From: a virus
Lineage: Duplodnaviria > Caudoviricetes
Virus record (IMG/VR): IMGVR_UViG_2870517152_000001
Coordinates: 7,231 to 71,230 of that record
Direction: 5' to 3' (one strand)
Length of the DNA stretch: 64,000 bases
Positions within the stretch are counted from its first letter, which is position 1, and each line of letters begins with the position of its first letter. The notes beneath the pieces are model-generated. The model saw only the letters and a list, made by a program, of their open reading frames with translations. It searched no databases and had not been told where the DNA came from. The position numbers and the translations under genes were made by a program. Positions 1-61,758 of this stretch are shown in pieces.

Positions 1-387
1 GTCGGCGACCACTGGGTACAGACCCACCGGCAGGCACTCACCAAGGGAGCGCCCGGGCGCGCCGGCAAGCGGGCGTGCCTCGGCCACGTCGTCACGCTCA
101 CCCTCACCAAGCTGACAGCGCTCGAACTGCTGTGGCTGGCCACCGGCTGGGTCCCCTCCGGGATCACCGCCGGCGCCGCCCTGGCCCTCGACATGATCAG
201 CCACTATTGGGCCGACCGGCAGCACACACTCGCCGCCCTCGCCGAGCGGCTCGGCAAGGCCGACTTCCACCAGCTCGGCATGCCCGAGGCCGCGCCGACC
301 GGGACCGGCGCGTACGCCCTCGACCAGTCATGGCACCTCGCCTGGACGTTCATCACCGCCCTGATCATCGCCGGAGGCTCCTGGTGA
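1..387 (+). CDS. DUF3307-like membrane protein (5' truncated by window)
   Basis: Frame 1 open from base 1: GDHWVQT...K...H...SHYWADR...DQSWH motif pattern with hydrophobic helices; typical of actinomycete conjugative elements. Confidence 0.65.
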   Translation, partial: VGDHWVQTHRQALTKGAPGRAGKRACLGHVVTLTLTKLTALELLWLATGWVPSGITAGAALALDMISHYWADRQHTLAALAERLGKADFHQLGMPEAAPTGTGAYALDQSWHLAWTFITALIIAGGSW

Positions 388-1526
388 ACCTCACGACCCC
401 GGCCGACCCGCCGCCCGAAGACATCGAGCGCGGCATCGCCGAGATCGAGCAGCACCTCGCCGCCCAGGCACCGGCCCAGCCGGCGCCCACCTCCCGGGAG
501 CTGGCCGTGCCGGCTCCCGCCGAGGACGACGACGAGGATGAGGATGTCGAGGCGGCCGAGCACGTCATCGACATCGACATCGACCTCGACGGCGGCGAGA
601 CCCGCCGGGTCCGCAGCCTGCGCGCCGAGGTCGCCGAAGCCCACCTCCTCGTCGGCTTGCAGGAGGACGAGGCGCCGCTGCTCGTCGACAGCCCGCGGGT
701 GCGCAAGCGCCGCCGGGCCGCCTACGAGGCGGCCAAGCTGCACGAGCTCACCCACGACCCCGTCGCGCTCGCCTACCGCGACGCCAAGGTTCGCCGGGCG
801 GTGACCGTGATGGTGATGTCGGCGGCGTCCATCGCGCTGGCCGTCAGCTCGATCGGCGTGCAGTCGTCCGTCGCCAAGGCCCTCGACCTACCGAAACACT
901 CGGTCGGCTGGTGGGCGGCGTTCGGTGTCGAGCCCGCGATGTCGCTGCCGCTGCTTGCCACGGTCGGCGCGCAGGCGTACAGCGCGATCCGCGGTGTGGT
1001 GGTCGACCGCAAGAGCGACGCCGGCCGGAAGCTGTTCCGCACCGAGGCGCTGCTGCTCGGGTTGACGCTCGTGCTGAACTGCTGGCCCGCGATCAAGATG
1101 GATTTCGATCTGCTGGCGTTCATCGTGCACTCGCTCGGCCCGGTCGCCGCGGTCACCGCCGTGTGGGTTCTGCCGACGCTGTGGCAGGTGCTCGCCGCCC
1201 TGCCCGTACCCCTCCCCGAGAGGACCGGCGGGGGCTCCGTCAGACCCGTCCGCCGCGCCTCCTCGAGGCCGTCGAGCGCGACCGGGCGTACCCCCTCCTC
1301 CACGGCGGATGACCAGCGGCGGAGGAGACCGGCGGAGGGGGGCTCCTCCGCCGCCTCCCGGGGGCGTACGGCGGATGAGCATCGCGCCGAGCTTCGCCGG
1401 TTGATCGCCGCCGGCGAGTTGCCGTCGCGGCCGTCTGCCCGGGCGATTCAGAACGCTCTGCGGTGCCGGGAGGAACTCTCCCGGGAGTTGCGCGACGAGC
1501 TCCGCGATAGGGGCGAGTCGCGATGA
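384..1526 (+). CDS. Spd-like / DUF2637-like plasmid spread membrane protein
   Basis: GGAGG then GTG at 384 overlapping the upstream TGA; four TM segments (GVEP motif) and a C-terminal helical/HTH-like region. Confidence 0.55.
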   Translation: MNLTTPADPPPEDIERGIAEIEQHLAAQAPAQPAPTSRELAVPAPAEDDDEDEDVEAAEHVIDIDIDLDGGETRRVRSLRAEVAEAHLLVGLQEDEAPLLVDSPRVRKRRRAAYEAAKLHELTHDPVALAYRDAKVRRAVTVMVMSAASIALAVSSIGVQSSVAKALDLPKHSVGWWAAFGVEPAMSLPLLATVGAQAYSAIRGVVVDRKSDAGRKLFRTEALLLGLTLVLNCWPAIKMDFDLLAFIVHSLGPVAAVTAVWVLPTLWQVLAALPVPLPERTGGGSVRPVRRASSRPSSATGRTPSSTADDQRRRRPAEGGSSAASRGRTADEHRAELRRLIAAGELPSRPSARAIQNALRCREELSRELRDELRDRGESR

Positions 1527-1552
1527 CCCGTGACTCTCGGAAGGAGTCTTCG

Positions 1553-2023
1553 ATGAGCAACACCTCGTCCCGGCCGGGCTGGTCCGGGGACATGTTGGAC
1601 CGCCCGGAGATGGTCGAGGCGTGGGCCGGCCAGCTGCGGGCGTCCTTGGCCGAGTACGTGGACTACGTCACCCGTATCCGTCGGGACGCCGAGGCCATGT
1701 GGAAGGCCAATCCGCCCGCCGAGTTCGGCAGCTTCGAGGCGTGGTGGCGGCACCACAAGGTCGCTGGCCCGTTCGCCCGGCTCCAGGAGCACCTGGAGGA
1801 GGCGGTCAAGCTCACCTTCGAGGTCGCGGCGCAGCACCGCCGGCAGCGTCACGAGGTGCCTGCCGCACGTCAGGCCGCCGCCCAGGCCAAGCAGCAGGTG
1901 GCGCTCGGCCGCGGCGCGGACACCGGCCGCTCGCCCCAGCCCCGACCTGCGGAAGCCCGGGCGCCGGCGGCCTCGCAGGACAGCACCTTCCTGGACTTCC
2001 TCCGCGGGGAGCGGTCGGCATGA
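1553..2023 (+). CDS. Conjugation-cluster helical protein
   Basis: AAGGAG RBS before ATG 1553; helical protein coupled within the tra operon. Confidence 0.55.
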   Translation: MSNTSSRPGWSGDMLDRPEMVEAWAGQLRASLAEYVDYVTRIRRDAEAMWKANPPAEFGSFEAWWRHHKVAGPFARLQEHLEEAVKLTFEVAAQHRRQRHEVPAARQAAAQAKQQVALGRGADTGRSPQPRPAEARAPAASQDSTFLDFLRGERSA

Positions 2024-2271
2024 GTACCACGATCGAGCTCACCCCGGAGGCGCGGCGGCGGCTCCAGAACCTCGCCAAGACCTGGGACGAGCGGGCCCGT
2101 GCCGCCGCAACCGACGCTGAACTGGCGAAGGTGTGCTTCGACCGGGCCAAGGCCGCCGCCCGCTGGGCGCAGCGCACCGGCGACATGCGTGCGATGCACG
2201 AACTGGCTGAGCTGCTCGCGACGTGGTCCGCGCAGACGGAGTACACCGCCGCCACCCGTCACACAGCGTGA
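2020..2271 (+). CDS. Hypothetical protein (83 aa)
   Basis: ATGA overlap with the upstream stop; alanine-rich helical sequence. Confidence 0.65.
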   Translation: MSTTIELTPEARRRLQNLAKTWDERARAAATDAELAKVCFDRAKAAARWAQRTGDMRAMHELAELLATWSAQTEYTAATRHTA

Positions 2272-2393
2272 TGCGCATCTTCATGTTCATCTGCCGCGTC
2301 CCCTCGCGCGCGTAATGCGCGGCGCGCGTACGCGCGGCGCGCGAGTATCCCGAATTCGGTTACTGACTGTCAACCCCCAGAGAGGAGGCGGAC

Positions 2394-4211
2394 ATGAGCG
2401 ACAACGACGAGAAGGGCCGCGGCGGGGAGCTTCTGCCCTTCCCCCGCGTGATCCTGCCAGGCTCCATGGACGCCCCCGAGCCAGGGCCTCGCGCCGCCGC
2501 TGGCGCCGCCGACGAGCCGGCCGCCCCGTCATGGCCTCGCCTACCCCGGGTGGAGCAGATGGGCCCCCCGCTGCACATGACCGTCCCGGCCGTCCCGGCG
2601 CTCGAATCCGGTGACGAGGAGGGCGCGTTCGCCCCGCCGCAGCCGGAGGACCCGGACAACCCGACCAGTCGGGACACCCTGCAGCTCGCCGTCGCGCTGA
2701 TGACGGCCATGGGTGTGGCCGCCGCGCAGGGCATGTGGCATCGGGCGCGGCACCGTTCGGCGCTCGCCGATCAGGCCCGGGCCAACGCGGACAAGGCGAC
2801 CGCGAAGGCTGCCGCCGCAGGATCCGGTACGCGCGCGGAGGGGAAGCGGTCCGGGTCGCTGACGCGCTCGCACCAGGAGGGCACACACAGGAAGTCTCAC
2901 GGGCCGCGTGGCGGCGGGCGAGGCGCTGGCGGGCACACGGGCCATGACGGCGACCGGAAGGCGCGTAAGGGGCCGAAGGGCGGCCCCAGCGGGGATCGGA
3001 GGCCGGGCGACGGCAAGACCGGCCCGAGCCCCAAGGCGCCCAAGGCCGGCCCGGGCGGCAAGACGATGCGGGACGGGGACAAGTCGAAGCAGCGCAAGCA
3101 ACGCCCCGGCAAGGACGGCAGCGCCCCGACGCGCCCCGACGCTCGCGTCCCTGAGGCGAAGGGCAAGCCGCCGAAGCAGCCCGCCCCGGCCGGCAGCAAG
3201 GGGCCCGGCAAGGGCGCGCGCGACGCGAAGCGGCCCACCGGCCCGGCCCCGTTGACGTGGAAGGCGCCCAAGAGCGGCAAGGACGCCAAGGAGGCCAGGC
3301 CGAAGCGCTGGACCGGCGGGCGCCCCGAGGGCAGCGGCAAGCCGGCGAAGAAGCCGACGGGCGGCGCCGGCAAGGACGAGCCGGCCGCCAAGACCCCGGG
3401 CGGATCCCGGCGGCCCGAGGGCCAGAAGCTGACCTGGAAGGCGCGCAAGGGGCACGGCAAGAGAAGCGCGGGGCCGAAGCGGTGGACAGCCGGACGGCCC
3501 GGCACCGGCCGCGGCAAGGGCACGTCCGGCACCAAGTCCGCGGGCGACTACCAGGACGCCGCCGGCTCGTGGAGGCCCCCGCCACCGCCGCCTCCCGGGT
3601 GGGAGGGGATGAGGCCCCCGCCCGGCGCCGACCGGGCCTACCGCTTCGAGCGGATGGACCGCGTCGACCAGCCCCCCGGCCGCGAGCAGCACGACAAGCC
3701 GGCCAGGGCCGTCACCGGGGCGCCCGCGGCAGGGTGGCGTGCGCTGCCCGCCGGCCGCGCCGCCGCGCCGCAGTCAGCCCCGTACGAGCAGGGAGCCCGA
3801 AGCATGAGCACGCCGCCGCCCCGCACGACCCAGTACGGCGACGCCGAGCTGACCATCTACGACGTGATCGAAGCCGACGCCGACATGGCCGAGGAGATCA
3901 CCGACGGCGTCGCCGAGGCCCGCGCGACCGCCGAAGGCTGCGAACGGCTCATCACCAAGCTCGAAGCCGTCCACGCCAAGCTCATCGAACTGCGAGTGCC
4001 GGGCGTCCTGGCGGGCTGGATGGTGCGGCTCATGGACAAGACCCTCACCGTCAAGGCCCGCGCGAACGCCATCGCCGAGGGCCTGCCCCGGGCGGCCGAG
4101 GCCATTGCGACCGCTGGCAGCAACGCCGCGGCGCGGCACAAGCCGCTGGCTGACGCCGTCCGCGACGCTGGCCACACCAGGCCCGCCGAGCGCGAATACC
4201 ACGACGAGTAG
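2394..4211 (+). CDS. Large K/G/P-rich conjugation-cluster protein with one TM segment and a C-terminal helical-hairpin domain
   Basis: GAGGAGG RBS; low-complexity basic middle with duplicated LTWKA/PKRWT motifs; ordered C-terminal ~130 aa. Confidence 0.7.
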   Translation: MSDNDEKGRGGELLPFPRVILPGSMDAPEPGPRAAAGAADEPAAPSWPRLPRVEQMGPPLHMTVPAVPALESGDEEGAFAPPQPEDPDNPTSRDTLQLAVALMTAMGVAAAQGMWHRARHRSALADQARANADKATAKAAAAGSGTRAEGKRSGSLTRSHQEGTHRKSHGPRGGGRGAGGHTGHDGDRKARKGPKGGPSGDRRPGDGKTGPSPKAPKAGPGGKTMRDGDKSKQRKQRPGKDGSAPTRPDARVPEAKGKPPKQPAPAGSKGPGKGARDAKRPTGPAPLTWKAPKSGKDAKEARPKRWTGGRPEGSGKPAKKPTGGAGKDEPAAKTPGGSRRPEGQKLTWKARKGHGKRSAGPKRWTAGRPGTGRGKGTSGTKSAGDYQDAAGSWRPPPPPPPGWEGMRPPPGADRAYRFERMDRVDQPPGREQHDKPARAVTGAPAAGWRALPAGRAAAPQSAPYEQGARSMSTPPPRTTQYGDAELTIYDVIEADADMAEEITDGVAEARATAEGCERLITKLEAVHAKLIELRVPGVLAGWMVRLMDKTLTVKARANAIAEGLPRAAEAIATAGSNAAARHKPLADAVRDAGHTRPAEREYHDE

Positions 4212-4223
4212 GGAGGCCCTGTC

Positions 4224-4658
4224 ATGGGTGCAGAACTGGAAAGAAGCCCCACAGGCGCCGCGGTCGCGGCCAGCAGCGGCGTGCTGGAGACGGTGGTGCG
4301 CTACGGCATCATCATCGCCCAGCTCACGGTGGCCGGGATCCGGCTGCGCGGTCTGAGCGAGCAGGTGCGCTCGACGTACCGCTACGTCGAAGGCTGCTCG
4401 TCCGGCGTGGACCGGCTCGCCGAGCAGATGGCTTCCCTGAAGGTGGACGTCGACACCGTCAGCGAGCACCACCAGGCCGCCGCCGTCATGCGGTCCGTGC
4501 TCGCCGAGGCCGACGCGATGGCCGCCGACACCGAGGACCTGGCGACCATGTTCGGCCAGGCATCCGACGCCCACCAGGCCGACTACGGGACCGTCGCCGA
4601 CACCGCCACCAGCATGCCGGTCCAGATGGCCGAAGCCGAGTTCTACAGCAACCGCTGA
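4224..4658 (+). CDS. Conjugation-cluster helical protein (144 aa)
   Basis: GGGAGG RBS; long amphipathic helices; C-terminus AEAEFYSNR resembles the end of the preceding protein. Confidence 0.7.
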   Translation: MGAELERSPTGAAVAASSGVLETVVRYGIIIAQLTVAGIRLRGLSEQVRSTYRYVEGCSSGVDRLAEQMASLKVDVDTVSEHHQAAAVMRSVLAEADAMAADTEDLATMFGQASDAHQADYGTVADTATSMPVQMAEAEFYSNR

Positions 4659-4677
4659 TGAGCCGAAGGAGAAGATC

Positions 4678-5538
4678 GTGACCCCGCCGCCGCTGCCCAA
4701 GGTGGACATGTCGCTGCCAGAGTGGCACGACCTCAGCCGGGCGCTCCGCCGCCTCGACACCGCACGCAGCGGCACGGGCCGCCTGGCCACCGCGGCCGGC
4801 TTCACCGCCGCGGCGGTCGGCCTGTTCACCGGCGACTTCGCCGGGGCGTCCCTGCTGGCGACCGCCGCCCTGTCCGCCGCTGGGCTGGCCTCCCTGCGGC
4901 TGTGGAAGCCCGATGGCCAGCAGAAGACGGTCGCGACCGTGCTCTACCTGGCGCCCGGCGCCAGCCTCGCCGCGCTGCTGGTCGGCGAGCGGATCGTGCC
5001 CGGCATCCACTGGGTGGAGGCGCTCGGCCTGGCCGTGTGGACGCTCGGGGTCGGGCTGGTGCGGCCGGCCCGCGTCGCTCGCCGCATGATGTCCCCGACG
5101 CCGCCGCCCGCGCCGGCGACCGACCTGGCCCCGGTCGACGGGCTGCTCGACGACCATCCGGCGGCGCGCTGGTGGGCGGAGCACGTGGCCGTCAAGGGTG
5201 GGGCCGCGCCCAGCACGCTGCTGGAGGGCATCGAGCGGACCGGCGAGAAGTCGCTCAAGGCCGTGATCCGCTCGGCCACCCCGGGCCGCCCGGTCCCGAA
5301 CATCGACGTCAAGGACCTGTCGGCGGCCATGAACATCCCCGAAGACCTGATCAAGATCGGGCCGGTGCCCGGCAGGGGCGCCTCCGTACGGCTGCTCAAG
5401 GTCGGCCAGCAGGAGGAGGACCGCGACCCAGCTTCGGTGTGGGCCAGCAGGATCGCCCCGCTGGCCATGCCCGGGACGGTGCTGACGAGCGTACGCAGCG
5501 GCCGGCCCGCCGCGAGTACCTCAGGACAGGAGGGCTGA
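4678..5538 (+). CDS. Membrane protein, probable N-terminal anchor partner of the TraB ATPase
   Basis: Four TM helices followed by an alpha/beta domain; immediately upstream of the FtsK-like gene. Confidence 0.65.
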   Translation: MTPPPLPKVDMSLPEWHDLSRALRRLDTARSGTGRLATAAGFTAAAVGLFTGDFAGASLLATAALSAAGLASLRLWKPDGQQKTVATVLYLAPGASLAALLVGERIVPGIHWVEALGLAVWTLGVGLVRPARVARRMMSPTPPPAPATDLAPVDGLLDDHPAARWWAEHVAVKGGAAPSTLLEGIERTGEKSLKAVIRSATPGRPVPNIDVKDLSAAMNIPEDLIKIGPVPGRGASVRLLKVGQQEEDRDPASVWASRIAPLAMPGTVLTSVRSGRPAASTSGQEG

Positions 5539-5541
5539 CCG

Positions 5542-7011
5542 GTGAGCACGCACACGCTGGCCCGCAGCGACGAGATCGTGGAGTTGATGCTGGAGGCGCC
5601 GCCTGGCCAGGTCATCAAGTACGACAAGGAAGCGCTCTGCTCCGCTCTCGGCGTCTCCGATGATCCGGCGCGCGTAGTTGTCGAGACGAGCGGCAGGCAG
5701 GCGATCGTCACCATCTACCCGTCCAACCCGCTCGCGGTGATGCCGCCGCCGTCGCCGAGCGACATGCTGATGGACCGGTACGGGCGGATCGTGGTCGGCC
5801 GCCACCACAACGGCCGCCCGGCGCGCCGTCGGTTGTTCGACCCGCGTACCGGCTCGGCCGTGCGGGCGTTCGTCCTGGGTACGACCGGCGCCGGCAAGTC
5901 CCGGACGGTCCAGTACACGCTCGCCTGCGAAAAGCGCAACCGCATCGTCTCCTGGTACGGCGACCTCAAGGGCGGCCAGAGCGCCCCTGAATCTGAGGGC
6001 CAGGTCGACTGGCGCGCCACCAGCCAGGAGGAGGTCGTCCTGATGCTGCGGTCGGCGGTCGCCGTCGCCCAAGCACGGCAGCGCCGGTACGCCGCGCTGG
6101 GCCGCAACGCCTTCCTGATCGGCGACCCGGACCCGCTGATGTCGGTGCGGCTCGATGAGGCCAACCGCGGGCTGGAGCGCGGCGCCCCCTACCGGGACGA
6201 GATGACGTATTGGATCAAGGAGTTGGGCCGGACCGGGCGCAGCGTCGGCGTCGGCATCGAGTTGGACGCCCAGGCCAGCCATCTGGAGGAGCTCGGTGGC
6301 AGCGACACGTTGAGGGCGATGCTCAAGGAGGGCGAGATCGTCCTGCTGCGCTGGTCGTCGTCGATGATGGCCCAGCTCGTCGCGGACGGCCTGCTGTCCG
6401 CGACCCAGTCGTTGCCGCCGATCCCCAAGCAGTTCAAGCCCGTCCAGCTGCGCAGCCAGTTCGACCTGGTCGGCGACGACGATGACGACTTCTGCGACAC
6501 CCAGGGAACCGCCTACCTGCTGTCCGGTGCGACTCCCACCAGCATGATGCGGCACTGGCGGATCGGCTCCATCGCCCCGCTGCCCGGTCTCGATCCCGAG
6601 ATCCAGGCCCTCTACGGGCCCGGTGAGCCGGCTCGCCTGGAGGAAGCCTCGTGGGAGGCGGCCGGCGCGGCGTACGCCGCCCGCCACGACCAGGCGGACA
6701 TGGCGGCGCTGTGTGCCGAGTTGCGTGAGGAGCTCTCGCAGAAGGGTCGTGGGCAGGCTGGTCACGGCGTTGACGACGAACCGGACGCCGGGGGCCGGAG
6801 AAAGCCCCGCCTCCTTGTCGACCGTGTCGTGGCTGCCCTGGCCGGCGCTGGCGAGCCGATGAGCGTCGAGGAAGTCCTGGCCTCTGTCAATGCCGACGGT
6901 GGCCGCCAGGTCAAGTCGGCCAACTCCGTCCGGAACGCCCTCCGTGACCTCGTCACCGCTGACGACGTCGCCCGCGCGGGGCACGGCATGTACGTCCTGC
7001 AGAACGCCTGA
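5542..7011 (+). CDS. traB: FtsK/SpoIIIE-family conjugal DNA translocase (TraB-like)
   Basis: Walker A GTTGAGKS, Walker B VRLDE, GRTGRSVGV...Q motif, C-terminal winged-helix-like domain. Confidence 0.8.
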   Translation: MSTHTLARSDEIVELMLEAPPGQVIKYDKEALCSALGVSDDPARVVVETSGRQAIVTIYPSNPLAVMPPPSPSDMLMDRYGRIVVGRHHNGRPARRRLFDPRTGSAVRAFVLGTTGAGKSRTVQYTLACEKRNRIVSWYGDLKGGQSAPESEGQVDWRATSQEEVVLMLRSAVAVAQARQRRYAALGRNAFLIGDPDPLMSVRLDEANRGLERGAPYRDEMTYWIKELGRTGRSVGVGIELDAQASHLEELGGSDTLRAMLKEGEIVLLRWSSSMMAQLVADGLLSATQSLPPIPKQFKPVQLRSQFDLVGDDDDDFCDTQGTAYLLSGATPTSMMRHWRIGSIAPLPGLDPEIQALYGPGEPARLEEASWEAAGAAYAARHDQADMAALCAELREELSQKGRGQAGHGVDDEPDAGGRRKPRLLVDRVVAALAGAGEPMSVEEVLASVNADGGRQVKSANSVRNALRDLVTADDVARAGHGMYVLQNA

Positions 7012-7041: not shown

Positions 7042-7356
7042 ATGATGTCCGATCCCCCCACCACACGGGCGGACCACGCCCGCGCCGAGATGTGCCTCAC
7101 CGTCGCCGCGGCCATCCTCGGCATGTTCGCCCTCACCCAGCGCTCCGCCGTCACCTGGGTCCTGTTCAAGGCTGGCGTGCCCGCGCCGTGGCTGTCGCCG
7201 TGGGTGTGGCTCCCGCCGCTCACGGTCTCCGCCGCCTGCTTCCACGTCGCCTGGCGCCTGATGCGGCACGGCACGGTGCCCGCCGTCTCGGCGCTCGTCG
7301 CGTTCGCTGGCTGGGCCATGATCCTCCTCGTCGAGGTCGCCTGGTGGGTCCGGTGA
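7042..7356 (+). CDS. Small membrane protein (three TM segments), Spd-like
   Basis: GAAAGGAAG RBS; hydrophobic helices. Confidence 0.6.
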   Translation: MMSDPPTTRADHARAEMCLTVAAAILGMFALTQRSAVTWVLFKAGVPAPWLSPWVWLPPLTVSAACFHVAWRLMRHGTVPAVSALVAFAGWAMILLVEVAWWVR

Positions 7357-7560
7357 CCGGAGCGGCGTTGCGGATGCCCGCCCGGCGTCACGTCGGGCGC
7401 GCGTCCGGAGCAGCCAGCTCCGCCACCGGAAGGAGCCCAGTGTGACCAGCAACGCCCGCGAGTTCGACGTGATGGACATGCGCGCAGCCGAGGCGATCGC
7501 CCGCGCGAGTGGGTGCGCCGTCGAGGAGGCGCTCGGGTACATCGCGGACGGAGAAACCCC

Positions 7561-8166
7561 ATGTCACTGATCCACGACCTCGAGCGGGTACGGGGAACTG
7601 GCTGCGTCGAGCGCATGATGGCGCTCGCCAGTGAGCTCGGGCTCACCGCGGCCGATGTCGTCCACATGCCGCACCAGATCGCGGCCGAAATCGCCGAGGG
7701 CTGCATCTGGTACGAGGACGCGCACGGCCTCGGCCACAAGCGGGACTGGCACGAGCACTTCCGGTACGGGGCCGACGTCGCCACCGCCGCCGGACTGGAG
7801 GGCATCGTCGCCTACCTCCTGACCCAGTTCTGGGAGGAGAGCGTCGCGGCGATCCTGCGCCGCCCGGACCGCACCGCCCACCTCACCCCGGAGGAGGTGG
7901 CGCAGCGTACACGGTTGAAGCTGTGGGCGGACGCCACCTTCGGACGCTGGGTCGGAGGGCCCGCGACAACCAGCCTGCGAGGCTGGCAGCAGAGCCTCCA
8001 CGTACGAGAGCCCCGGCCGTCTCCCCAACGGCCGGGGCTCTCTCATGTCCGGTCCAGGTCGGCTCACCTGCGGGCAGGGGCCGCCGGACACCTGGCTCCC
8101 GCGGGGCGCAACGGTGGCCACCCCGGCTCCGCGAGAGCCAGGCTGCCTATCGGGCGCGGCCTGTGA
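7561..8166 (+). CDS. Hypothetical protein; C-terminal ~60 aa probably spurious read-through
   Basis: GGAG before ATG 7561; the frame runs through a terminator hairpin at 8008-8040. Confidence 0.45.
   Translation: MSLIHDLERVRGTGCVERMMALASELGLTAADVVHMPHQIAAEIAEGCIWYEDAHGLGHKRDWHEHFRYGADVATAAGLEGIVAYLLTQFWEESVAAILRRPDRTAHLTPEEVAQRTRLKLWADATFGRWVGGPATTSLRGWQQSLHVREPRPSPQRPGLSHVRSRSAHLRAGAAGHLAPAGRNGGHPGSARARLPIGRGL
8008..8044 (+). terminator. Intrinsic terminator ending the tra operon
   Basis: 13-bp perfect stem GAGCCCCGGCCGT / ACGGCCGGGGCTC, 7-nt loop, followed by TCTC. Confidence 0.65.
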
Positions 8167-8470
8167 GGATGCGCAGCCACACGTCGTCAGCCTGCGGGCG
8201 CGACCACGGGCCCGCGTAGTGGCTGATCATCGAGTCGCCCTGCACAAGCCGGTGAATCTGGTAGGCGCCGCTGCACGACACCAGCTCGTACGTCACTGCC
8301 AGGCACGAGCACGTGTACTGCAGCACGCGGTACGGGCCGACCGGTTCCCTTTGCCACGGGATCTGCTTGCAGCCGGCCAACGGACGGCCGGGGTGCGGGG
8401 AGATGCCGGGGCACTCGAAATCGTCGCTGCTCGCCGAGGTCCGGCCGCTGTCGGGCCAATACACCGTCAT
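8147..8470 (-). CDS. Hypothetical protein (Cys-containing, 107 aa)
   Basis: ATGA overlap with the 8467 stop; MTVYWPDSG... sequence. Confidence 0.55.
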   Translation of the reverse strand: MTVYWPDSGRTSASSDDFECPGISPHPGRPLAGCKQIPWQREPVGPYRVLQYTCSCLAVTYELVSCSGAYQIHRLVQGDSMISHYAGPWSRPQADDVWLRILTGRAR

Positions 8471-8709
8471 GGCATGTCCCCGGCGGTGAAGGGGATCTCC
8501 TTGCCGATGGCGGCCGAGACGCGCAGGACCATGCCCTTCATCTCGGCGTCCTGCACGGTGGTCGCGGTCTCGGTGTCGCCGGTCCGCTTGTGCCGGACCC
8601 GGATGGTGCCGTCGTCGTCGCGGCTGGTGTCGCATTCGGGGATCTCGGGGATCTCGGGGAGCGGCGTCGAGGGGTTGTCCTCGGCGTGGCCGCTCGTAAA
8701 CTCGGCCAT
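8467..8709 (-). CDS. Hypothetical protein (80 aa)
   Basis: GGAGG 8 nt before ATG 8709. Confidence 0.55.
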   Translation of the reverse strand: MAEFTSGHAEDNPSTPLPEIPEIPECDTSRDDDGTIRVRHKRTGDTETATTVQDAEMKGMVLRVSAAIGKEIPFTAGDMP

Positions 8710-8807
8710 AGGTCGCACCTCCACCGTGCGATCGTCTGGGCCCGCTGGCGTGTCCGCGCCGGTCGGGCCCACATTCATGTGCGGCTGGTGACCGTCATGC
8801 TACGTCG

Positions 8808-8831
8808 CTTCACCATACTTCACCATGGTGA
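8808..8831. promoter_or_regulatory. Candidate operator in the divergent region upstream of GntR
   Basis: CTTCACCAT repeated at 8808 and 8818; perfect 12-bp palindrome TCACCATGGTGA at 8820-8831. Confidence 0.4.
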
Positions 8832-8885
8832 GACATGAGGAAGTATGGGTATCCGCAGGTCAGTAGGGGTGCCTAGCGTGAAACC

Positions 8886-9140
8886 GTGATGATCGAATGG
8901 CGGTTGAATGCCCCACGCTGGGTGCAGATCGCGGAGATCCTCAAAGCGAGGATCGCTGACGGCACCTACCCGGTGGACTCGCCGCTGCCGAGCGAACATC
9001 AACTGGTGCAGGAGTTCGGTGTCGCCCGCGGGACCGCGCGCAAGGTGCTGGTCCGGCTGCGGGAGGAGGGCGTCGCCTACGCGGTGCGCGGTTTGGGGAC
9101 GTTCGTGGCCGCGCCGAAGCCGAAGCCCACGTCAGAGTAG
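8886..9140 (+). CDS. GntR-family winged-helix regulator (Kor/TraR-like, DNA-binding domain only)
   Basis: RWVQIAEILKARIADGTYP...LPSEHQLVQEFGVARGTARK...GLGTFV is the GntR HTH signature. Confidence 0.9.
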   Translation: MMIEWRLNAPRWVQIAEILKARIADGTYPVDSPLPSEHQLVQEFGVARGTARKVLVRLREEGVAYAVRGLGTFVAAPKPKPTSE

Positions 9141-9168
9141 CCGTCCCGGCTGGCGTACCCTGGCGGCC

Positions 9169-9393
9169 GTGAGCAGGTGGTACGGCCCCAACGGGATCGA
9201 GGTGGAGCGCATCCTGCTCGACCGCGGCCACGGGGCCCGCCAGGTGCTGCGCGTGACCCAGCGCGGTCCAATCCGCGACATCGTGCTCGCCTACGCGGAG
9301 ACCGTGGACGAGGTCGGAAAGCTCGTCCCTCTCGCCGACTTGGTGGAGGTCTACCAGCTACCCGGGCGCCGAGAGTCGGCCAATGTCCCGTAA
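9169..9393 (+). CDS. Hypothetical protein (74 aa)
   Basis: GTG start; followed directly by a terminator. Confidence 0.5.
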   Translation: MSRWYGPNGIEVERILLDRGHGARQVLRVTQRGPIRDIVLAYAETVDEVGKLVPLADLVEVYQLPGRRESANVP

Positions 9394-9396
9394 CGC

Positions 9397-9430: not shown

Positions 9431-9473
9431 TTCCAGGCAGCGGCACCCTATGGGACCTAGGCGGCGCCGGCGC

Positions 9474-10030: not shown

Positions 10031-10063
10031 CCACCGGGCAAAAAGCGCCGGACAAGTAACCAT

Positions 10064-51703: not shown

Positions 51704-53322
51704 GAAGCACGCTCCAGCGGCTCGCCCGTGATGGCCTCGACCAGCGCGGACACGATGATTTCGGCGACGGGCGGGGTGACGGCGTTGCCGTACTGGCGGA
51801 CCTTCTCCCGCTTGTTGCCGAGCACGACGTAGTCCTGGCCGAAGGCCATGGCGCGGCCGATCTCGTGCGGCTCCAGCATCCGGAAGAGCACGTCGTCGAG
51901 GTCGATGTCGGCGAGCCCCTGGGCGATGGCGTACCGGTCGCGGGTCGACAGCGTGCCGATCGGCTCGCTGGCCGGGCGGGCGTAGCCGTTGCCGTAGTAC
52001 GGGGCGAGGAGCGTGACGACGGACTGGTGGCCGGCCGTGGTGAGCGTGCGCATGGGCTCGTCGAAGGGCGTGCACATCTGGCTGGCGTCGCCCCTGGGGG
52101 TGTTGTTGCGCATCACGAACCCGGGCGGTGTGACGAGCCCGTGGTGGTTGCCGGACGCGGTCACGGTGGCGAGCGCCTCGTCGACCGATCGGGCGTCGCT
52201 GCCGCCACCGCGGAGCTCAGCGACGAAGGGCAGCCACGCCAGGCCGGTTTCGTTGCGCGCGGTCTGGGTGCGGAGCGGCGCGGTGGCGGGGGTGGCCTCC
52301 TTGCCCTCGCGGCCCTCGACCGGGACGAGGAGCGGCGGGATGGCGATGCCGTCGTTCTCGCGGGTCGTCCTGGTGGGCATCGGCTGGGTGACCGGGACCG
52401 CGTCGTCTCGCCACGTCCCGCCGGCTGGGACCATGATGGGGCGGGCGTACTTCTCCAGCCCGGCCCGGATCCGGGCGACGGTCTTGTCGGCCAGCGGCTT
52501 GGCTCGGTCGCCGATCCGCTGGCCGGGGATCGTCCAGTCGATCGCGTACGCGGCGGGCAGCGCGGCCGGCTCCACCACGGCGTTGCGGCACGTGGACCGG
52601 GGGCACCGGAAGACGTACTGCTGTCGGTAGCGGCCCATGTCGGCGCCCTGCTGCTTGAACACCTGGATGGCCGACACCCACTCGTCGCAGGCCGGGCAGT
52701 AGGCGGCGGGCCGCAGCCACTTGTCCCAGTCCGGGTCGCGGCCGAGCGAACGGTGCCAGTAGGCGACATACATCCGGTCGCGGGACTGCGGCGCACGTGG
52801 CGTGCGTGAGGCGGGCGCGTGCATGCTGTTCATCGCGATGACCCGAACCTTGTAGCCCAGCGCCCGGATCTCGCCGAGCCAGCGGTCCCACTGATCCCAG
52901 GCCCGAACATCCACGACGTTCTCGACGACGCCTGCCAGGACAAGCCCGCCGCGCTGCTGGACGCCCCGCAGGTACATCGGGACCTCTTCCATGAGCGCGC
53001 GGGACCGCTCGGCCTCCTCGTCGCGCTCCTCGCCGAACAGGGAGTCCTGCATGGAGGTGGCGAAGTCGCGCCGCTTGCCGCGGGCGTTGGACCACTGCGG
53101 GCATTCGGGGGAGGCCCAGAAGATGTCGCAGACGGGCCACCGCTCGACGGGCGCCTCGCGGATGTCGCCGAGGTAGTGGTCGACAGTGGGGAAGTTGGTG
53201 GCGTGGGACTCGATCGCGCGCTTCCAGTGGTTCGCGGCGCGGGTGACCTCGACGCCGGGCACGGCGTGAGCGCCCTGCGAGGAGCCGCCGGCTCCGCAGA
53301 ACCAGTCCATGAGGGTCAGCAC
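51700..53322 (-). CDS. C5-cytosine DNA methyltransferase
   Basis: FCGAGG motif I, SPEC motif IV, VENV motif VI, QSRDR motif VIII, GNAVTPP motif X. Confidence 0.92.
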   Translation of the reverse strand: MLTLMDWFCGAGGSSQGAHAVPGVEVTRAANHWKRAIESHATNFPTVDHYLGDIREAPVERWPVCDIFWASPECPQWSNARGKRRDFATSMQDSLFGEERDEEAERSRALMEEVPMYLRGVQQRGGLVLAGVVENVVDVRAWDQWDRWLGEIRALGYKVRVIAMNSMHAPASRTPRAPQSRDRMYVAYWHRSLGRDPDWDKWLRPAAYCPACDEWVSAIQVFKQQGADMGRYRQQYVFRCPRSTCRNAVVEPAALPAAYAIDWTIPGQRIGDRAKPLADKTVARIRAGLEKYARPIMVPAGGTWRDDAVPVTQPMPTRTTRENDGIAIPPLLVPVEGREGKEATPATAPLRTQTARNETGLAWLPFVAELRGGGSDARSVDEALATVTASGNHHGLVTPPGFVMRNNTPRGDASQMCTPFDEPMRTLTTAGHQSVVTLLAPYYGNGYARPASEPIGTLSTRDRYAIAQGLADIDLDDVLFRMLEPHEIGRAMAFGQDYVVLGNKREKVRQYGNAVTPPVAEIIVSALVEAITGEPLERAS

Positions 53323-55378: not shown

Positions 55379-55828
55379 TCAGGAGGCGGCCATCTGCCGC
55401 TCAGGCACCAGCTCGCCGCGGCAGCGGACGCACTCGCGGCGCACGTCCGGCAGCGGCTGGCCGGCCTGGGCGGCGGCGAGCTCGCCGGGGGTGGCGTCGC
55501 CGATGTAGTCGCCGCAGCCGTTGCACGCCCGCTGGATGGTGACTCGGGTGCCGTCCTCGCCCTGGAGCGGCGCGGTGACCGGCCGGACGGGCGGCTCAGC
55601 GGGTTCCGGCTCGAAGGCGAGCAGGTCGATGCCGAGCACGCTCTCCAGCACGTTGGCCGCGGCGAGAGCTGCGTTGGCGAGCTGCCGGGCCCAGGCCGGG
55701 TCGGTGACGATGATGGATTCGCCGCCGCCGAAGTCGATCGGCACCCGCAGGTCCCGGCCGGCGCCGGTGATGTCGCCGGCCTTCGGCTGGCCGAGCGTCG
55801 CCGTGGTGGTCGTCTGCCGGGCGCTCAT
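55379..55828 (-). CDS. Hypothetical protein with Zn-finger-like motifs
   Basis: CNGC and CVRC motifs; ATGA coupling. Confidence 0.6.
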   Translation of the reverse strand: MSARQTTTTATLGQPKAGDITGAGRDLRVPIDFGGGESIIVTDPAWARQLANAALAAANVLESVLGIDLLAFEPEPAEPPVRPVTAPLQGEDGTRVTIQRACNGCGDYIGDATPGELAAAQAGQPLPDVRRECVRCRGELVPERQMAAS

Positions 55829-56757
55829 GCTTCGACCGCCTGCTCGTCGTCGACCACTTCGGCGTCGACCGTGTCGTCGGAGTCCCGAGCGGCCTCGCGC
55901 TCCAGCGCGTCGATGACACGCGACGCCTCGTCGAGAGTGAGCTCGTTGCGCGAGGTCACCTGCTGCTCAGCAGGCCGCTGGAGCACCTCGTTGACGAACG
56001 CGAGAGCCGCGTCTCGATCGGTCAGCCCGGCCTCTCGCATGGCGGTGCCCATCTTCTTGAGCTGGGCGGAAGTGACCATGCGCTCCCCGGTGTCCGTCGA
56101 AGACTCAGCCGTGTCCGGCGCCGCACTGTCCGTGGGCGGCTGCTCGGCGGGGGCGACCGCGGCCCGGATCGTCTGGCCCGGCCGGTTCTCACGTGCCACC
56201 GCGGTCGTGACGACCACGGACCCGTCGGCGTTCACCTCCGCGCCGAGCTCCTCCGGCGTGTAGCCGACGCCGGACAGCTCCTCCTCGCACGCCTCCCGGG
56301 CGACCTCGCTGATGGCGCGCGCCTTGAGCATCGCCTCGGGGTAGTTCTGCCAGACGTTCTTGCCCGCCAGGCCGGCCGCCTGGGCGCGCGCCATGGTCCA
56401 GGTGGAGCGGAACTCGAAGTCCGGGTCGTCCTTGCGGACGATGGTGGCCACGGCCGCGATGAGCTTGCCGTTCTCGTCGCGCTCGACCCAGACGCGCAGC
56501 CGGTGCCCGGCCCGCCGCACCAGCGCGCTGATGAGGCCGGACGACGCGGACGGGCGGCCTTCGATGATGTGGACGCCGTTGATGGCGGCGATCGGCTCGA
56601 TGCCGAGGCTGCGCCCGAACTCGATCGCGTACAGGACGTTCTCCGGCTTGCCCTGGTACTGCTTGGGCAGCAGGTTCGACACGGCGAGCGCCCGGCTGTA
56701 CTCCATCCGCTCGGGCAGCGAGTCGGCGCGCTCTACAGGCAGGGTGGCGAGGGTCAT
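55825..56757 (-). CDS. recT: RecT-like single-strand annealing protein
   Basis: LLPKQYQGKPEN...G..LGIEP...IEGRP...W..YPEAML.ARA motifs. Confidence 0.8.
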   Translation of the reverse strand: MTLATLPVERADSLPERMEYSRALAVSNLLPKQYQGKPENVLYAIEFGRSLGIEPIAAINGVHIIEGRPSASSGLISALVRRAGHRLRVWVERDENGKLIAAVATIVRKDDPDFEFRSTWTMARAQAAGLAGKNVWQNYPEAMLKARAISEVAREACEEELSGVGYTPEELGAEVNADGSVVVTTAVARENRPGQTIRAAVAPAEQPPTDSAAPDTAESSTDTGERMVTSAQLKKMGTAMREAGLTDRDAALAFVNEVLQRPAEQQVTSRNELTLDEASRVIDALEREAARDSDDTVDAEVVDDEQAVEA

Positions 56758-57710
56758 GCAACGGCTCCTGTCAGTGTGGTCGGGTCGGGGAGTTTGCGGC
56801 CGGCCACCAGGTAGGGGGTGCCGCCGTTCTTGGCCTGGCGGGTGGCGATCGTCTGGCCCCGCCAGCGGGCCCTGCGCGCGGTGCCCATGGCGGCGGCAAG
56901 GCGGCTCTTGGCGGCGGTGACGCGCGCCTCGGCGGTCTTCGTCTCGGCGAGTGCGGTCAGGTACTCGATCGCGGTGTCGTCGTCGAGGTCGATGTGGGTG
57001 TCGTCGATGTCGGGGTGGAGTTTGCGGAGGGTCTCGTAGGTGGCGGGGTGGCCGTCGAGGTCGGGCATCTCCCGCCAGAGCAGCGAGTCGAGGAAGTCGT
57101 CGGCCGCCTGCCGCAGTAGGGCGGCGTCCGCGGGGTCGTAGTCGACGACGTATTCGGCGAAGGTGAGCCGGTCGGACAGGACGGCGATGTGTGCCCGCTG
57201 CAGGCCGAGCACGTCCATGTACCACTGCACCTGGGTGCGGTAGTAGAGCGGGATCTCGTCGGTGCCGGGCTCGCCCCACCCGGTGCCGTCGGCGTCGGTT
57301 TTGATCTCCAGGAGGGCGGAGACGGCGATGTCGAACCAGCCGACGGCGTTGGGGATGGGGTTGTAGCGGATGAGCCGGTCAGGGTTGGCGAGGTGCTGGC
57401 CGCGGTCCTGGTGCACCCACGTGCCGGTGGTGAACACGTGCCAGTCGGGGTGCTGGTCGGCGAACCAGGCGGCGATCGCGGGTTCGAGGTAGTGGCCGCG
57501 GTCCTGCTGTGGGGTGGCCGGCGCGGCGTCGACGAGGCCAGCCATCTCGCACCACGTGGAGTGGGGGCTGGCCCACGGGGACAGGCCGAGGATGGCGGCG
57601 ATGCGGGATCCGCCGATGCGCTGCGCCCGGGCGGCATGCCATTCGGGGGTGTCGTGCTCCCATCGGCCGAGGTAGCGGCCAGTGGGCGTGTACAGGCGGT
57701 TGTCGCTCAT
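56754..57710 (-). CDS. YqaJ/lambda-exonuclease-like recombinase (RecE-like)
   Basis: EWH..R..RIGGS.IAAILGLSPW, GH.LE, ANPDR, LEIKT, YY..QVQWYM. Confidence 0.92.
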   Translation of the reverse strand: MSDNRLYTPTGRYLGRWEHDTPEWHAARAQRIGGSRIAAILGLSPWASPHSTWCEMAGLVDAAPATPQQDRGHYLEPAIAAWFADQHPDWHVFTTGTWVHQDRGQHLANPDRLIRYNPIPNAVGWFDIAVSALLEIKTDADGTGWGEPGTDEIPLYYRTQVQWYMDVLGLQRAHIAVLSDRLTFAEYVVDYDPADAALLRQAADDFLDSLLWREMPDLDGHPATYETLRKLHPDIDDTHIDLDDDTAIEYLTALAETKTAEARVTAAKSRLAAAMGTARRARWRGQTIATRQAKNGGTPYLVAGRKLPDPTTLTGAVA

Positions 57711-60354: not shown

Positions 60355-60603
60355 TTACGGGGTGGGGTTGTGCACTCGGGGCAGGTTGGCGACGTACGCC
60401 AGGAGCGCGGCGGCCGGGACGCGCAGGAGGGTGCGGGTGCTGCCCTCTCCGGCCACGTCCACGGCCTCGAGGAGTCCGTCGCGAATGCGGTCGTAGACTG
60501 CGTCCCTGCTGTCGAGGCCGAGCTGTTCGCATACCTGGGGGATGGTCAGCAGCAAGGGGAGCTGGAACTGCGTGTCGGCGGTCTTGGTCTTGGCGCGCTT
60601 CAC
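60355..60603 (-). CDS. xis: Excisionase-like HTH protein
   Basis: LLTIPQVCEQLGL..SRDAVYDRIRDGLL HTH_17 pattern. Confidence 0.75.
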   Translation of the reverse strand: MKRAKTKTADTQFQLPLLLTIPQVCEQLGLDSRDAVYDRIRDGLLEAVDVAGEGSTRTLLRVPAAALLAYVANLPRVHNPTP

Positions 60604-60848
60604 GACGCGACCTGCTCGTCCACGTCGAAGAGGGCTGCGATCTGCTCGCGTACGGTGTCGTCGCCGAGCAGCCGGAGGATCCCGATCACGTAAGGGCCCG
60701 ACAGGTCCTTGGTCTTGCCGGTGATGACGCGGTTGTGGATGGAGACGTGGACTCCGATGGCGCGGGCCTGGGCGCTCTGCGAGTCGAGGCCGAGCGCGGC
60801 GGCCTGGTCTGCGAATTCGTCGCGGCGCAGCTTGACGTTGTGCGCCAT
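60600..60848 (-). CDS. Cro-like HTH protein
   Basis: GGAGG RBS; QSAQARAIGVHVSIHNRV HTH; divergent from the repressor. Confidence 0.75.
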   Translation of the reverse strand: MAHNVKLRRDEFADQAAALGLDSQSAQARAIGVHVSIHNRVITGKTKDLSGPYVIGILRLLGDDTVREQIAALFDVDEQVAS

Positions 60849-60926: not shown

Positions 60927-61063
60927 CAATAGGGAAGTCAAGATTCTTTGCGCTACAAATCAGGGCTTTCACATGGGTAAACCTGGACAGTCAGGCTTCG
61001 GTGCCCTCAGCGGCCATGTTGTACGAAGTGATCAGCGCGCTATCATCATTGCTCGTGGGCAAA

Positions 61064-61528
61064 ATGGCAGGTCAGCTAGGCGCTTGGCTGCGCCAGGAGC
61101 TGACGCGACGCGGCTACGACCTCGCCAAGGGCGGGCAGTCGCAATTTGCGCGCGAAGCGGACGTGCACGTCTCGATCATCAACCGGGTCGTCAACAAGGG
61201 CCAAGGTGTCGAGATCGACGTCCTACGACGGATCGGCCGGGCGCTCGGCTTCAACGTCGGCGAGATGCTGGTGCTCGCTGGGCAGGTCGAGCGTGACGAG
61301 TTGCCGGTCCGCCCTCCGGAGGAACTGGAAGAGGCGTCTCATCCCGAGCCTGCGCCGGACACCAACCCGTACAGCGACCCGTACGAGCGTCAGGTGTGGG
61401 AGATGGAAGAGTTGTCGGAGTTCGTCCGCCGCTCGATGATCGTGGCCATGCAGAGCGCGATCCGGATGGAGGAGGAAGAGGACAAGCGGCCGAACGCCGA
61501 CGTCCGACAGTTCCGCCGGCCCTCCTGA
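61064..61528 (+). CDS. Immunity repressor (XRE HTH)
   Basis: QSQFAREADVHVSIINRVVN...LRRIGRALG HTH; divergent from cro. Confidence 0.85.
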   Translation: MAGQLGAWLRQELTRRGYDLAKGGQSQFAREADVHVSIINRVVNKGQGVEIDVLRRIGRALGFNVGEMLVLAGQVERDELPVRPPEELEEASHPEPAPDTNPYSDPYERQVWEMEELSEFVRRSMIVAMQSAIRMEEEEDKRPNADVRQFRRPS

Positions 61529-61597
61529 TGGCGGTGGGGGTCCTGGCCGCCCGCCGAGACGTTGCTCTCTGTAATCTGCATCCTCGAGACCGTCTGC

Positions 61598-61660
61598 GTG
61601 CGTCAGCCGTGCGTCAAGAGGTGTCGACACCAGCCGACACCAGCCGACACGGGGCGACAG
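61598..61660 (+). repeat. Candidate integrase arm-type / Xis sites
   Basis: GTGCGTCA at 61598 and 61609; CGACAC three times at 10-bp period (61625-61650), then CGACAG. Confidence 0.55.
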
Positions 61661-61709
61661 TTTTCGCAGGTAGAGACGCATCTGCAGAGTTCTCACCTGG
61701 GGTTACTGT

Positions 61710-61758
61710 CTTCGTTCACACCGAAGAGGTCACTGGTTCGATCCCAGTATCGCCCACC
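61710..61758 (+). other. att core: 3' half of tRNA-Val(CAC)
   Basis: CTTCG-TTCACAC-CGAAG anticodon arm, GGTTCGATCCC T-arm, ATCGCCCACC acceptor strand; no D-arm or 5' acceptor strand upstream. Confidence 0.88.

Follow-up and report, generated by a model that had tools for sequence, protein, structure and literature searches.

The stretch of DNA analysed here, called the window below, is 64,000 nt long and corresponds to positions 7,231 to 71,230 of the 71,230-bp IMG/VR provirus record IMGVR_UViG_2870517152_000001, the completeness of which is given by CheckV as 93%. Genes were called by third-position GC (guanine plus cytosine) content, the record having a GC content of about 70%, and the left flank was read in the source contig BAAAVE010000017.1 (268 kb) of the assembly GCA_039534365.1. 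The host of the element is Nonomuraea, not Streptomyces. The left part of the window is occupied by an operon of transfer (tra) genes and a region of variable cargo, and the part from 10966 to 61528 by a complete-looking siphovirus, with virion, lysis, replication and immunity modules lying between attachment (att) sites (Table 1). Virion genes and a plasmid-type transfer module are therefore found on one replicon, as in plasmid-phages like PhiNon1 and pZL12.

The first base of the record falls at the stop codon of a complete tyrosine integrase of 378 amino acids (aa), which is encoded on the minus strand (PF00589, E = 2.3e-17), is located 6.1 kb to the left of base 1 of the window, and gives the single PF00589 match in the record, at the record's left end. 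In the source genome an intact tRNA-Val(CAC) gene is situated 77 bp past the integrase stop and is followed by a gene of the SsgA family (ssgB). The 3' part of this intact tRNA gene (L005:11211-11262) constitutes the left copy of the att core, and the right copy, attR, lies beyond a CI-like repressor at the other end of the phage. An initial annotation, made from the letters of the window alone, had placed the integrase and the intact tRNA to the left of base 1, and both were located there; it had read the core as 49 bp in length, and the identity between attL and attR actually runs over 52 bp. It had also noted that the repressor comes close to the tRNA-Val core without an intervening integrase, and the gap of 181 bp indeed contains no gene and no integrase-type open reading frame (ORF). 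To the right of the attR core there are a terminator-like hairpin and then host genes for a P450 and a HAD hydrolase, a flank that is not syntenic with the right flanks of three other elements considered below (G004, G007 and that of G032).

The two cores are about 69.1 kb apart and are the sole core pair. No other copy of the core was found in the 71-kb record at up to 8-10 mismatches, and a blastn-short search (word size 7) of the whole tRNA against the record detected no att remnant longer than 12-13 nt, so that the absence of a second core from the window, reported in the initial annotation, was borne out by the exact, mismatch-tolerant and blastn-short searches. The record contains no large serine integrase (Recombinase domain), and no att repeat pair bounding a 9-24 kb unit of the actinomycete integrative and conjugative element (AICE) type was found in it. 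An internal att site or two integrase-att pairs, which had been named as signs that would speak for separate elements, are both absent; besides the integrase there is only a small resolvase. This resolvase was considered as the phage integrase and rejected, as it has 211 aa, lacks the Recombinase domain and is absent from the close relative G001. Because there is a single pair of 52-bp repeats, and the sole integrase and the intact tRNA lie to the left of base 1, the 69.1 kb can be regarded as one enclosed unit. We concluded, with good support, that the window represents most of one mobile element of about 69.1 kb which resides in the Nonomuraea chromosome inside one att pair.

The tra operon runs on the plus strand from about 2.1 kb to the left of base 1 to window position 8166, and is divergent from a gene encoding a 134-aa GntR regulator (Pfam GntR, E = 5.6e-15). 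Its first gene belongs to the excisionase family (NCBIfam TIGR01764, 33.7 bits against a cut-off of 28.8). The DUF3307 match of the gene that enters the window at base 1 is below threshold (21.5 bits against a cut-off of 23), and a homologue with 60% identity is present in G103, a sister prophage without TraB. The 380-aa Spd-like protein falls into one hidden Markov model family with a protein of G006 (E = 1.7e-77), which in turn shares 72% identity with a protein of PhiNon1 recognised by Pfam DUF2637; the Spd-like gene stands where pFP12-type plasmids have their DUF2637 gene. The five genes that follow, of which the 286-aa product contains one hydrophobic segment, are kept in G001, G002, G005, G006, G008 and G034 with ratios of nonsynonymous to synonymous substitution (dN/dS) of 0.25-0.70. 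Pfam, NCBIfam and PDB sequence searches with the tra proteins were blank. By tblastn, the block of six genes from 1553 to 7011 is found in the same order, with identities of 50-74%, in the Streptomyces plasmids pFP12 (NC_023068) and NZ_CP107980. Because six contiguous genes are syntenic at this level of identity with pFP12-type plasmids, we concluded from sequence comparison that the tra module is genuine and is derived from Streptomyces-type plasmids.

These results agree with the initial annotation in that cargo genes, a GntR regulator and a tra-like operon continue beyond the lysis genes, the plus-strand operon ending in a P-loop 'transfer protein'. Its description of a full operon with DUF3307, Spd-like and FtsK/TraB genes stood for the Spd-like gene and the FtsK fold; the DUF3307 assignment stays sub-threshold and the operon starts outside the window. 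It had further proposed that a second xis or repSA gene might be met on extending the sequence leftward. An excisionase-family gene was met there, heading the operon, and a plasmid Rep was not: no Rep-type domain occurs in the scanned called proteins of the left 18 kb, a few short ORFs lying outside the scan; Prim-Pol gave no PF09250 match at E<=1; and RepAM, for which there is no Pfam model, was judged absent by size and position only. No second integrase was found in the left 18 kb.

Among the cargo genes at 7042-10867, those other than the GntR gene have no family match, and this region is partly conserved, in G001 only. In the interval between the integrase and the 134-aa GntR regulator (L004:2902-4574, about 2.7-4.3 kb to the left of base 1) there are genes for an isochorismatase-family hydrolase and for a 370-aa protein with an N-terminal helix-turn-helix (HTH)-like region; both are absent from G001 and represent strain-specific cargo, and they stand where pFP12-type plasmids have Prim-Pol and ATPase genes beside GntR. 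At the site that corresponds to the DUF3307 and Spd-like genes of the window element, the tra operon of G001 contains 1.3 kb without called genes (G001:5622-6979, L013), in which words like GGAACTCG and GTTCCCTC form arrays of 5-9 copies; the arrays could be a clt locus or mark a decayed region.

The last gene of the six-gene block encodes the 489-aa TraB-like protein, which carries a Walker A motif (GTTGAGKS) and a Walker B-like DEAN motif. By tblastn it has 221 plasmid matches in Streptomycetaceae and other actinomycetes, annotated as 'transfer protein', and its identity to the protein of that name on Streptomyces plasmids is 68-70% (71% in the locus comparison); no match was obtained by tblastn against 50,697 phage records, and Pfam, NCBIfam and PDB sequence searches with it gave no match. 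A profile of nine members retrieved 672 relatives among 1.84 billion representatives. Many of these have 600-800 aa and are alignable only over the C-terminal region of about 470 residues, and some distant ones carry FtsK_SpoIIIE or FtsK_gamma domains (P0053 scores 33.4 bits to PF01580). A first AlphaFold2 model, built from 9 sequences, had a mean predicted local distance difference test (pLDDT) score of 53.6, too poor for searching, and was replaced by a model from a 57-sequence alignment with a pLDDT of 90.9. The best PDB matches of the latter in Foldseek were the coupling protein TcpA of pCW3 (1.3e-11) and the FtsK motor (1.6e-11), over 350-400 columns. Residues 425-486 are modelled with confidence as three helices and a beta-hairpin, suggesting a winged-helix-like C-terminus, and the neighbours of the protein in the ESM Atlas agree with an FtsK-type protein. 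We concluded that, as far as the modelled fold indicates, the 489-aa protein is a short, divergent translocase of the TraB/FtsK type, an assignment made because of fold (Foldseek) and transitive homology and not because of a Pfam match. Among the composite elements, that is, those with both tra and virion genes, the dN/dS of TraB is 0.13-0.38 and that of the tail and portal genes 0.16-0.43; by these ratios TraB is under purifying selection in the same range as the tail and portal genes.

The reading developed below, namely that of a temperate siphovirus whose plasmid-derived transfer module may let its DNA spread by two routes, has several points against it. The Pfam family FtsK_SpoIIIE (PF01580) has no match at E<=10 in the whole record. 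The TraB-like protein, with 489 aa and no predicted transmembrane (TM) segment, is without the N-terminal region of the usual TraB proteins of 650-780 aa, and a search for a clt-like repeat array near traB gave no convincing cluster in this element, the strongest cluster obtained being the iteron-like array beside the helicase gene, read below as an origin. FtsK-like genes are frequent in actinophages and may have a non-conjugative role there. The phage can do without the module, as the sister prophage G103 retains the DUF3307 and Spd-like genes without TraB. Lastly, homologous capsid genes occur in elements of 62-87 kb, and the largest may not fit the head.

Some of these points would be expected if the element is one phage in which TraB and Spd serve a non-conjugative purpose, such as DNA movement within the same mycelium, exclusion of superinfecting or plasmid DNA, or help in replication or segregation, with no transfer between strains. 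The missing N-terminal region and clt are in line with this, as are the ESM Atlas neighbours carrying FtsK_SpoIIIE, which are 50-86% viral, and terminal-repeat phage contigs with distant TraB-like genes in other positions; one of the latter is the 50,982-bp IMG/VR metagenome contig G118 (L076-L078), which has virion genes and a distant 673-aa TraB-like gene elsewhere in the order. Yet the six-gene block is syntenic with, and 50-74% identical to, that of small Streptomyces plasmids in which the gene is annotated as transfer protein; it is accompanied, as in conjugative plasmids, by a GntR gene and a DUF2637 Spd-like gene; and intramycelial spread and conjugation share machinery. We therefore consider a purely non-conjugative role unlikely.

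The phage part reads leftward to the lysis cassette, as the initial annotation had described, with early genes followed by genes for the large terminase (TerL), portal, protease, major head protein, tail tube, tape measure, minor tail proteins, endolysin and a holin-like protein. A megablast search against the 50,697 phage records gave only short Gordonia phage matches in TerL and in a methylase, and we therefore conclude that this set contains no close sequenced phage. The TerL ORF, with 784-856 aa, matches its profile in two blocks (residues 122-273 and 541-807) separated by a low-GC insert, and the sequence is consistent with an in-frame intein layout. If the insert had instead inactivated TerL, the element might in effect be a large integrative conjugative element into which a dead prophage has been taken up, and a CheckV completeness below 100% would fit with this as well. 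However, the hallmark genes for virion, lysis, replication and immunity all have open frames and follow the order known from functional siphoviruses; across relatives, tail and portal genes show the low dN/dS given above, the TerL insert is laid out as an in-frame intein would be, and the related PhiNon1 is active in excision and replication (PMC5431353). A defective phage part is accordingly held to be highly improbable.

Downstream of the DnaB-like helicase gene there is a gap of 247 bp with an iteron-like array, in which all 6 copies of GGTACAGGT in the record are found; an identical array occupies the same place in G001, and different iterons adjoin the helicase or primase genes of G006, G034 and PhiNon1. 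Judged by its repeats and position, the GGTACAGGT array is probably a replication origin, and its place beside the helicase appears compatible with an autonomous multicopy circular form. The replication block also contains genes for an N6/N4 methylase, an SNF2-like helicase and a C5 methylase, and the first genes of the early-left operon (60355-60848) are conserved in the relatives without TraB, G103 and G003.

Several further observations were made in the phage part. A collagen triple-helix repeat protein of 189 aa (12231-12800, minus strand) is encoded directly upstream of the endolysin gene, and a protein of the YspA/SLOG family (PF10686; 46479-46937) among the replication genes. A low-GC patch (0.64) at 39269-40410 comprises the gene of the 211-aa resolvase and a 169-aa gene, both absent from G001; at the resolvase position G002 has a 299-aa XerC/D-like tyrosine recombinase, and the resolvase or the XerC/D-like recombinase may serve multimer resolution of a circular replicating form. 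A tRNA-Ser(GCT) of 89 nt called by ARAGORN on the plus strand (34311-34399) is probably false, as it has no Rfam support, lies inside a conserved minus-strand coding sequence and is not called in relatives.

Table 1. Features of the element within the 64,000-nt window
Feature	Position	Strand	Basis or remark
DUF3307-like gene, 3' part (153 aa whole; start 74 nt left of window)	1-387	+	Pfam DUF3307, E 2.5e-4
Spd-like membrane protein, 380 aa	384-1526	+	At least two hydrophobic segments; DUF2637 family by transitive homology
Five conserved transfer-operon genes (156, 83, 605, 125, 286 aa)	1553-5538	+	Plasmid-derived; small or low-complexity
TraB-like double-stranded DNA translocase, 489 aa	5542-7011	+	FtsK-type motor and C-terminal winged helix, predicted from model
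Variable cargo between tra and lysis genes	7042-10867	both	104-aa protein with 2 TM segments, 201-aa protein, small ORFs, GntR
Short GntR-family regulator	8886-9140	+	Pfam GntR, E 7.8e-16
Holin-like gene, 4 TM segments	10966-11475	-	Four hydrophobic segments
Endolysin	11433-12221	-	Amidase_2, E 1.3e-17; PG_binding_1, E 2e-11
Tail module (collagen-repeat protein, minor tails, tape measure)	12231-22075	-	PHROGs, collagen repeats
Minor tail proteins	14343-17279, 17284-18468	-	PHROGs minor tail, E 4.8e-32
Tape measure, 1204 aa	18461-22075	-	PHROGs, E 3.8e-96
Head/connector module, including connectors	22354-34457	-	PHROGs
Tail tube	22821-23375	-	Phage_TTP_17
Cement protein	25394-26050	-	Phage_cement_2
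Major head protein	26455-27384	-	PHROGs major capsid protein, 1.1e-76
Protease	27834-29291	-	PHROGs, 4.4e-110
Portal	29295-31427	-	PHROGs, 6.2e-76
Large terminase (TerL) with insert	31887-34241/34457	-	PHROGs, 6.2e-85
Small serine recombinase, resolvase type, 211 aa	39775-40410	-	Resolvase, E 1.2e-40, and HTH_7
Iteron-like array	44538-44680		Six direct GGTACAGGT copies and inverted copies
Replication/modification genes	44715-53322	-	Pfam DnaB and AAA_25, N6_N4_Mtase, Helicase_C, DNA_pol3_beta x3, DNA_methylase
DnaB-like helicase	44715-46205	-	Pfam DnaB and AAA_25
DnaN sliding clamp	49786-50871	-	DNA_pol3_beta x3
RecT-like annealase and YqaJ-type exonuclease	55825-57710	-	Pfam RecT, 2e-8; YqaJ, 1.5e-20
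HTH_17 excisionase-like gene, 82 aa	60355-60603	-	HTH_17, 27.9 bits against cut-off 27
cro-position gene, 82 aa	60600-60848	-	First of early-left operon
CI-like HTH repressor	61049-61528	+	Weak HTH_3/HTH_26 matches; divergent from early operon
attR core	61710-61761	+	Copy of tRNA-Val(CAC) 3' part, anticodon stem to 3' end and 3 nt

The initial annotation had suggested that synteny of tra and capsid genes be looked for in related genomes, and collinearity was found in PhiNon1 as well as in five or more additional Nonomuraea genomes. G001, an IMG/VR provirus from N. rhodomycinica, is collinear with the window element over the whole length, with aa identities of 98% for the integrase, 82-94% for the tra proteins, 93-98% for lysis and tail proteins, about 60% for the head proteins and 99% for the repressor. 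G002, from Nonomuraea sp. SYSU D8015, is also collinear throughout, its nucleotide identity being 66-75% in the tra part as well as in the phage part. Each of the two is bounded by an intact tRNA-Val gene beside a related integrase and by a second core, the elements being 62 kb and 87 kb in size. The repressor, which in G002 is 55% and in PhiNon1 46% identical to that of the window element, is at the same end in all of them. G004 and G007 share the tRNA-Val core pair. In G005 (N. rosea) and G006 (Nonomuraea sp. NPDC050790), tra genes of the same family followed by lysis, tail, head and early genes are located between exact 45-bp repeats of tRNA-Arg(TCT); these elements measure 64.6 and 62 kb, and their tyrosine integrases, of 492 and 702 aa, are at the repressor end, far from tra. 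A sixth composite, G034, has head genes that are 87% identical to those of G002 and a TraB of another clade. On the circular map the order is always int/attP, cargo and GntR, tra, lysis, tail, head, early genes and repressor. The lower-GC terminal-repeat metagenome contig G116 (88,991 bp, L079-L083) has the order int-GntR-tra-lysis-tail-head, with a 799-aa TraB-like gene.

Related elements that lack one of the two parts were also found. The TraB-less sister prophage G103 lies at a tRNA-Pro gene, with an integrase 68-76% and tail, portal and TerL proteins about 80% identical, and G003 is a TraB-less 54-kb terminal-repeat phage with a tRNA-Val attP. A census of the TraB family in 110 Nonomuraea species genomes gave 9 positive genomes, which comprise 5 composites, 3 phage-less carriers and 1 case cut by a contig end; the phage-less carriers are one plasmid-like contig of 54 kb and two AICE-like elements, each of which has an integrase of its own. 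G008, which is phage-less, has the same tra family and its own integrase at a tRNA-Ala gene, and G051 is likewise phage-less. Both ends of the plasmid-like 53,964-bp Nonomuraea contig G073:C133 (L054-L056) fall within one tra-operon gene, so that the contig probably represents a closed circular plasmid; a TraB of this family (58% identity) and several resolvases are encoded on it, and BLAST detected no virion genes there. In the TraB tree the composite and phage-less elements are intermixed. In G085 (L061-L064; 2258-39114, reverse-complemented), an element of about 36.8 kb with an integrase of 59% identity and no TraB stands between tRNA-Val-like cores; the tRNA-Val att site therefore serves several element types in Nonomuraea.

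The phage-less relatives bear on whether the window element arose by accretion, in which an independent prophage would have come to stand in tandem with a decayed AICE or an integrated plasmid at one tRNA gene, with the internal att site, the AICE integrase and Rep lost and the tra genes carried as a passenger that is at most mobilised in cis. In Streptomyces, AICEs and decayed AICEs are documented to have accumulated in tandem at a single tRNA (PMC9513070), Nonomuraea has phage-less relatives with this tra family (G008, G051 and G073), and the mixed TraB tree would fit as well. However, no att remnant above the length stated earlier was found; the order at the tra-lysis junction recurs with three integrase/att modules, including the tRNA-Arg elements with their distant integrase; the tra and phage genes show similar divergence, and TraB is still under purifying selection. 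Whatever its origin, the block is now within one att pair. Accretion in this sense is thus rated as quite improbable. The nested or tandem AICE arrangements offered as alternatives in the initial annotation are disfavoured likewise, the tra block being without Rep, integrase and att, and the integrase lying opposite tra in two relatives. Comparison of the relatives shows a layout that is conserved, modular and kept by purifying selection, in which three types of integrase/att and two clades of TraB occur. These results agree with a phage lineage in which an exchangeable transfer cassette occupies the slot between lysis genes and integrase, and can hardly be explained by two independent elements standing in tandem by chance.

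Taken together, we favour as probable the explanation that the element is a temperate siphovirus of the PhiNon1 'plasmid-phage' kind, in which a transfer module derived from a Streptomyces plasmid occupies the slot between the lysis genes and int/attP, and from which spread by two routes is inferred. That the same DNA would actually spread both in virions and from hypha to hypha is, from the gene content, plausible and falls a little short of probable.

Under this explanation the element could work as follows. The CI-like repressor at the right end would hold lysogeny, and the GntR regulators would hold the tra operon. Kor regulators are known to act in this manner, KorSA in pSAM2 and KorA in pIJ101 keeping the tra genes repressed. 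The integrase, together with one of the two Xis-like proteins, would excise the whole 69-kb circle; the HTH_17 Xis-like gene of the early operon would be under the phage repressor, and the excisionase-family gene heading the tra operon under GntR. The circle would replicate from the iteron origin beside the DnaB-like helicase gene, so that phage replication functions would supply the copies that AICEs get from their own Rep. By the first route the circle would be packaged and released by lysis. By the second, a TraB hexamer would pump the double-stranded DNA circle into neighbouring hyphae, where the DUF2637 and other membrane (Spd) proteins would spread it, and the circle would re-integrate at tRNA-Val.

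A wider proposal, which we put forward tentatively, is that there exists a conserved lineage of tRNA-integrating actinophages in Nonomuraea and related high-GC mycelial hosts with two independently regulated exits. Induction under SOS or repressor control would lead to virions; the second excisionase and TraB/Spd, expressed under GntR/Kor control, would lead to virion-free pumping of the entire excised genome of the phage to adjacent hyphae. Phage replication would replace the plasmid Rep, and the tra cassette would pass between phages, AICEs and plasmids.

Gene flow by phages and gene flow by conjugative elements are as a rule handled as separate routes. If the two-route explanation is true, such an element would escape receptor-based phage resistance, its lysogeny would spread through the mycelium without killing of the donor, and the distinction between prophage and integrative conjugative element calls in actinomycete genomes would be blurred. 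The window provides a well-delimited integrated example, the layout of which is tied to PhiNon1, an element already shown to excise and replicate. It could offer a tractable system for dual-route transfer in Nonomuraea, the genus to which the producer of the lipoglycopeptide antibiotic A40926 belongs.

Compared with known systems, the element shares with the AICEs pSAM2, SLP1 and pMEA300 (te Poele et al. 2008, PMC2440964) a tyrosine integrase at a tRNA 3' end, Xis, a GntR-type Kor, an FtsK-like Tra and Spd. By definition, AICEs comprise int, rep and tra modules within 9-24 kb (PMC2440964, PMC3218068). The window element has the integrase adjoining att in a tRNA 3' end, and the AICE-type set of FtsK-like Tra, Spd and GntR is present in the form of the FtsK fold, the DUF2637 family and two GntR regulators. 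AICEs carry RepSA, RepAM or Prim-Pol and no virion genes, whereas the sole att pair of the window element encloses 69 kb and a complete phage; in Rep and in size it is not an AICE. The pFP12-type plasmids (NC_023068, NZ_CP107980) resemble it in the divergent GntR, the DUF2637 protein and the six-gene block ending in the transfer protein, but differ in having Prim-Pol and ATPase replication genes, ParA and a recombinase, and no virion genes. With TraB of the pSVH1 kind the TraB-like protein shares the motor with Walker A and B motifs, whereas the PF01580 match and the N-terminal region are missing from it.

The plasmid-phage kind is already known through the published PhiNon1 and pZL12. The initial annotation had stated that pZL12-type plasmid-phages combine virion and tra genes, and the literature agrees (PMC3583192): pZL12, or phage ZL12, of Streptomyces (Zhong et al. 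2010, J Bacteriol 192:3747; cited in PMC3583192 and PMC4487206) has virion genes and a Streptomyces-type tra on one replicon, and its conjugal transfer needs a major tra gene together with two genes adjoining it (PMC3583192). pZL12 is a 90-kb extrachromosomal plasmid-prophage, whereas the window element is integrated in a tRNA gene by a tyrosine integrase. A paper on the pZL12 relative pSLE1 mentions ParA and ParB genes of pZL12, and no partition genes were found among the scanned proteins of the window element.

PhiNon1 of N. gerenzanensis ATCC 39727 is described as a 59,257-bp 'plasmid-phage' with about 17 copies, of which the circular and the integrated form were both detected by polymerase chain reaction (PCR; D'Argenio et al. 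2016, Sci Rep 6:18; PMC5431353). It shares its attB with the window element, the 3' end of tRNA-Val(CAC) beside ssgB. The chromosomal primers of that paper match the left flanks of the window element, G004 and G007 with 0-1 mismatch, and the PhiNon1-internal primers have no match in the window element; one internal primer led us to PhiNon1 in the genome G032, between cores about 59.6 kb apart. The layout is the same, with tRNA, int, cargo, a plus-strand operon containing DUF2637 and a TraB-like ATPase, lysis, tail, head and early genes, repressor and core, and the integrase is 52% identical to that of the window element. PhiNon1 differs in its head and tail genes, which are of the G005/G006 type, and in its TraB-like protein of 654 aa, which is only 25% identical to that of the window (profile E = 2.4e-11, weak FtsK_SpoIIIE). 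The accessible text of the PhiNon1 paper (PMC5431353) does not discuss transfer genes, and to that text the present analysis adds that the slot is conserved, that integrase and TraB types are exchanged, that Xis-like genes are present in duplicate and that there is purifying selection.

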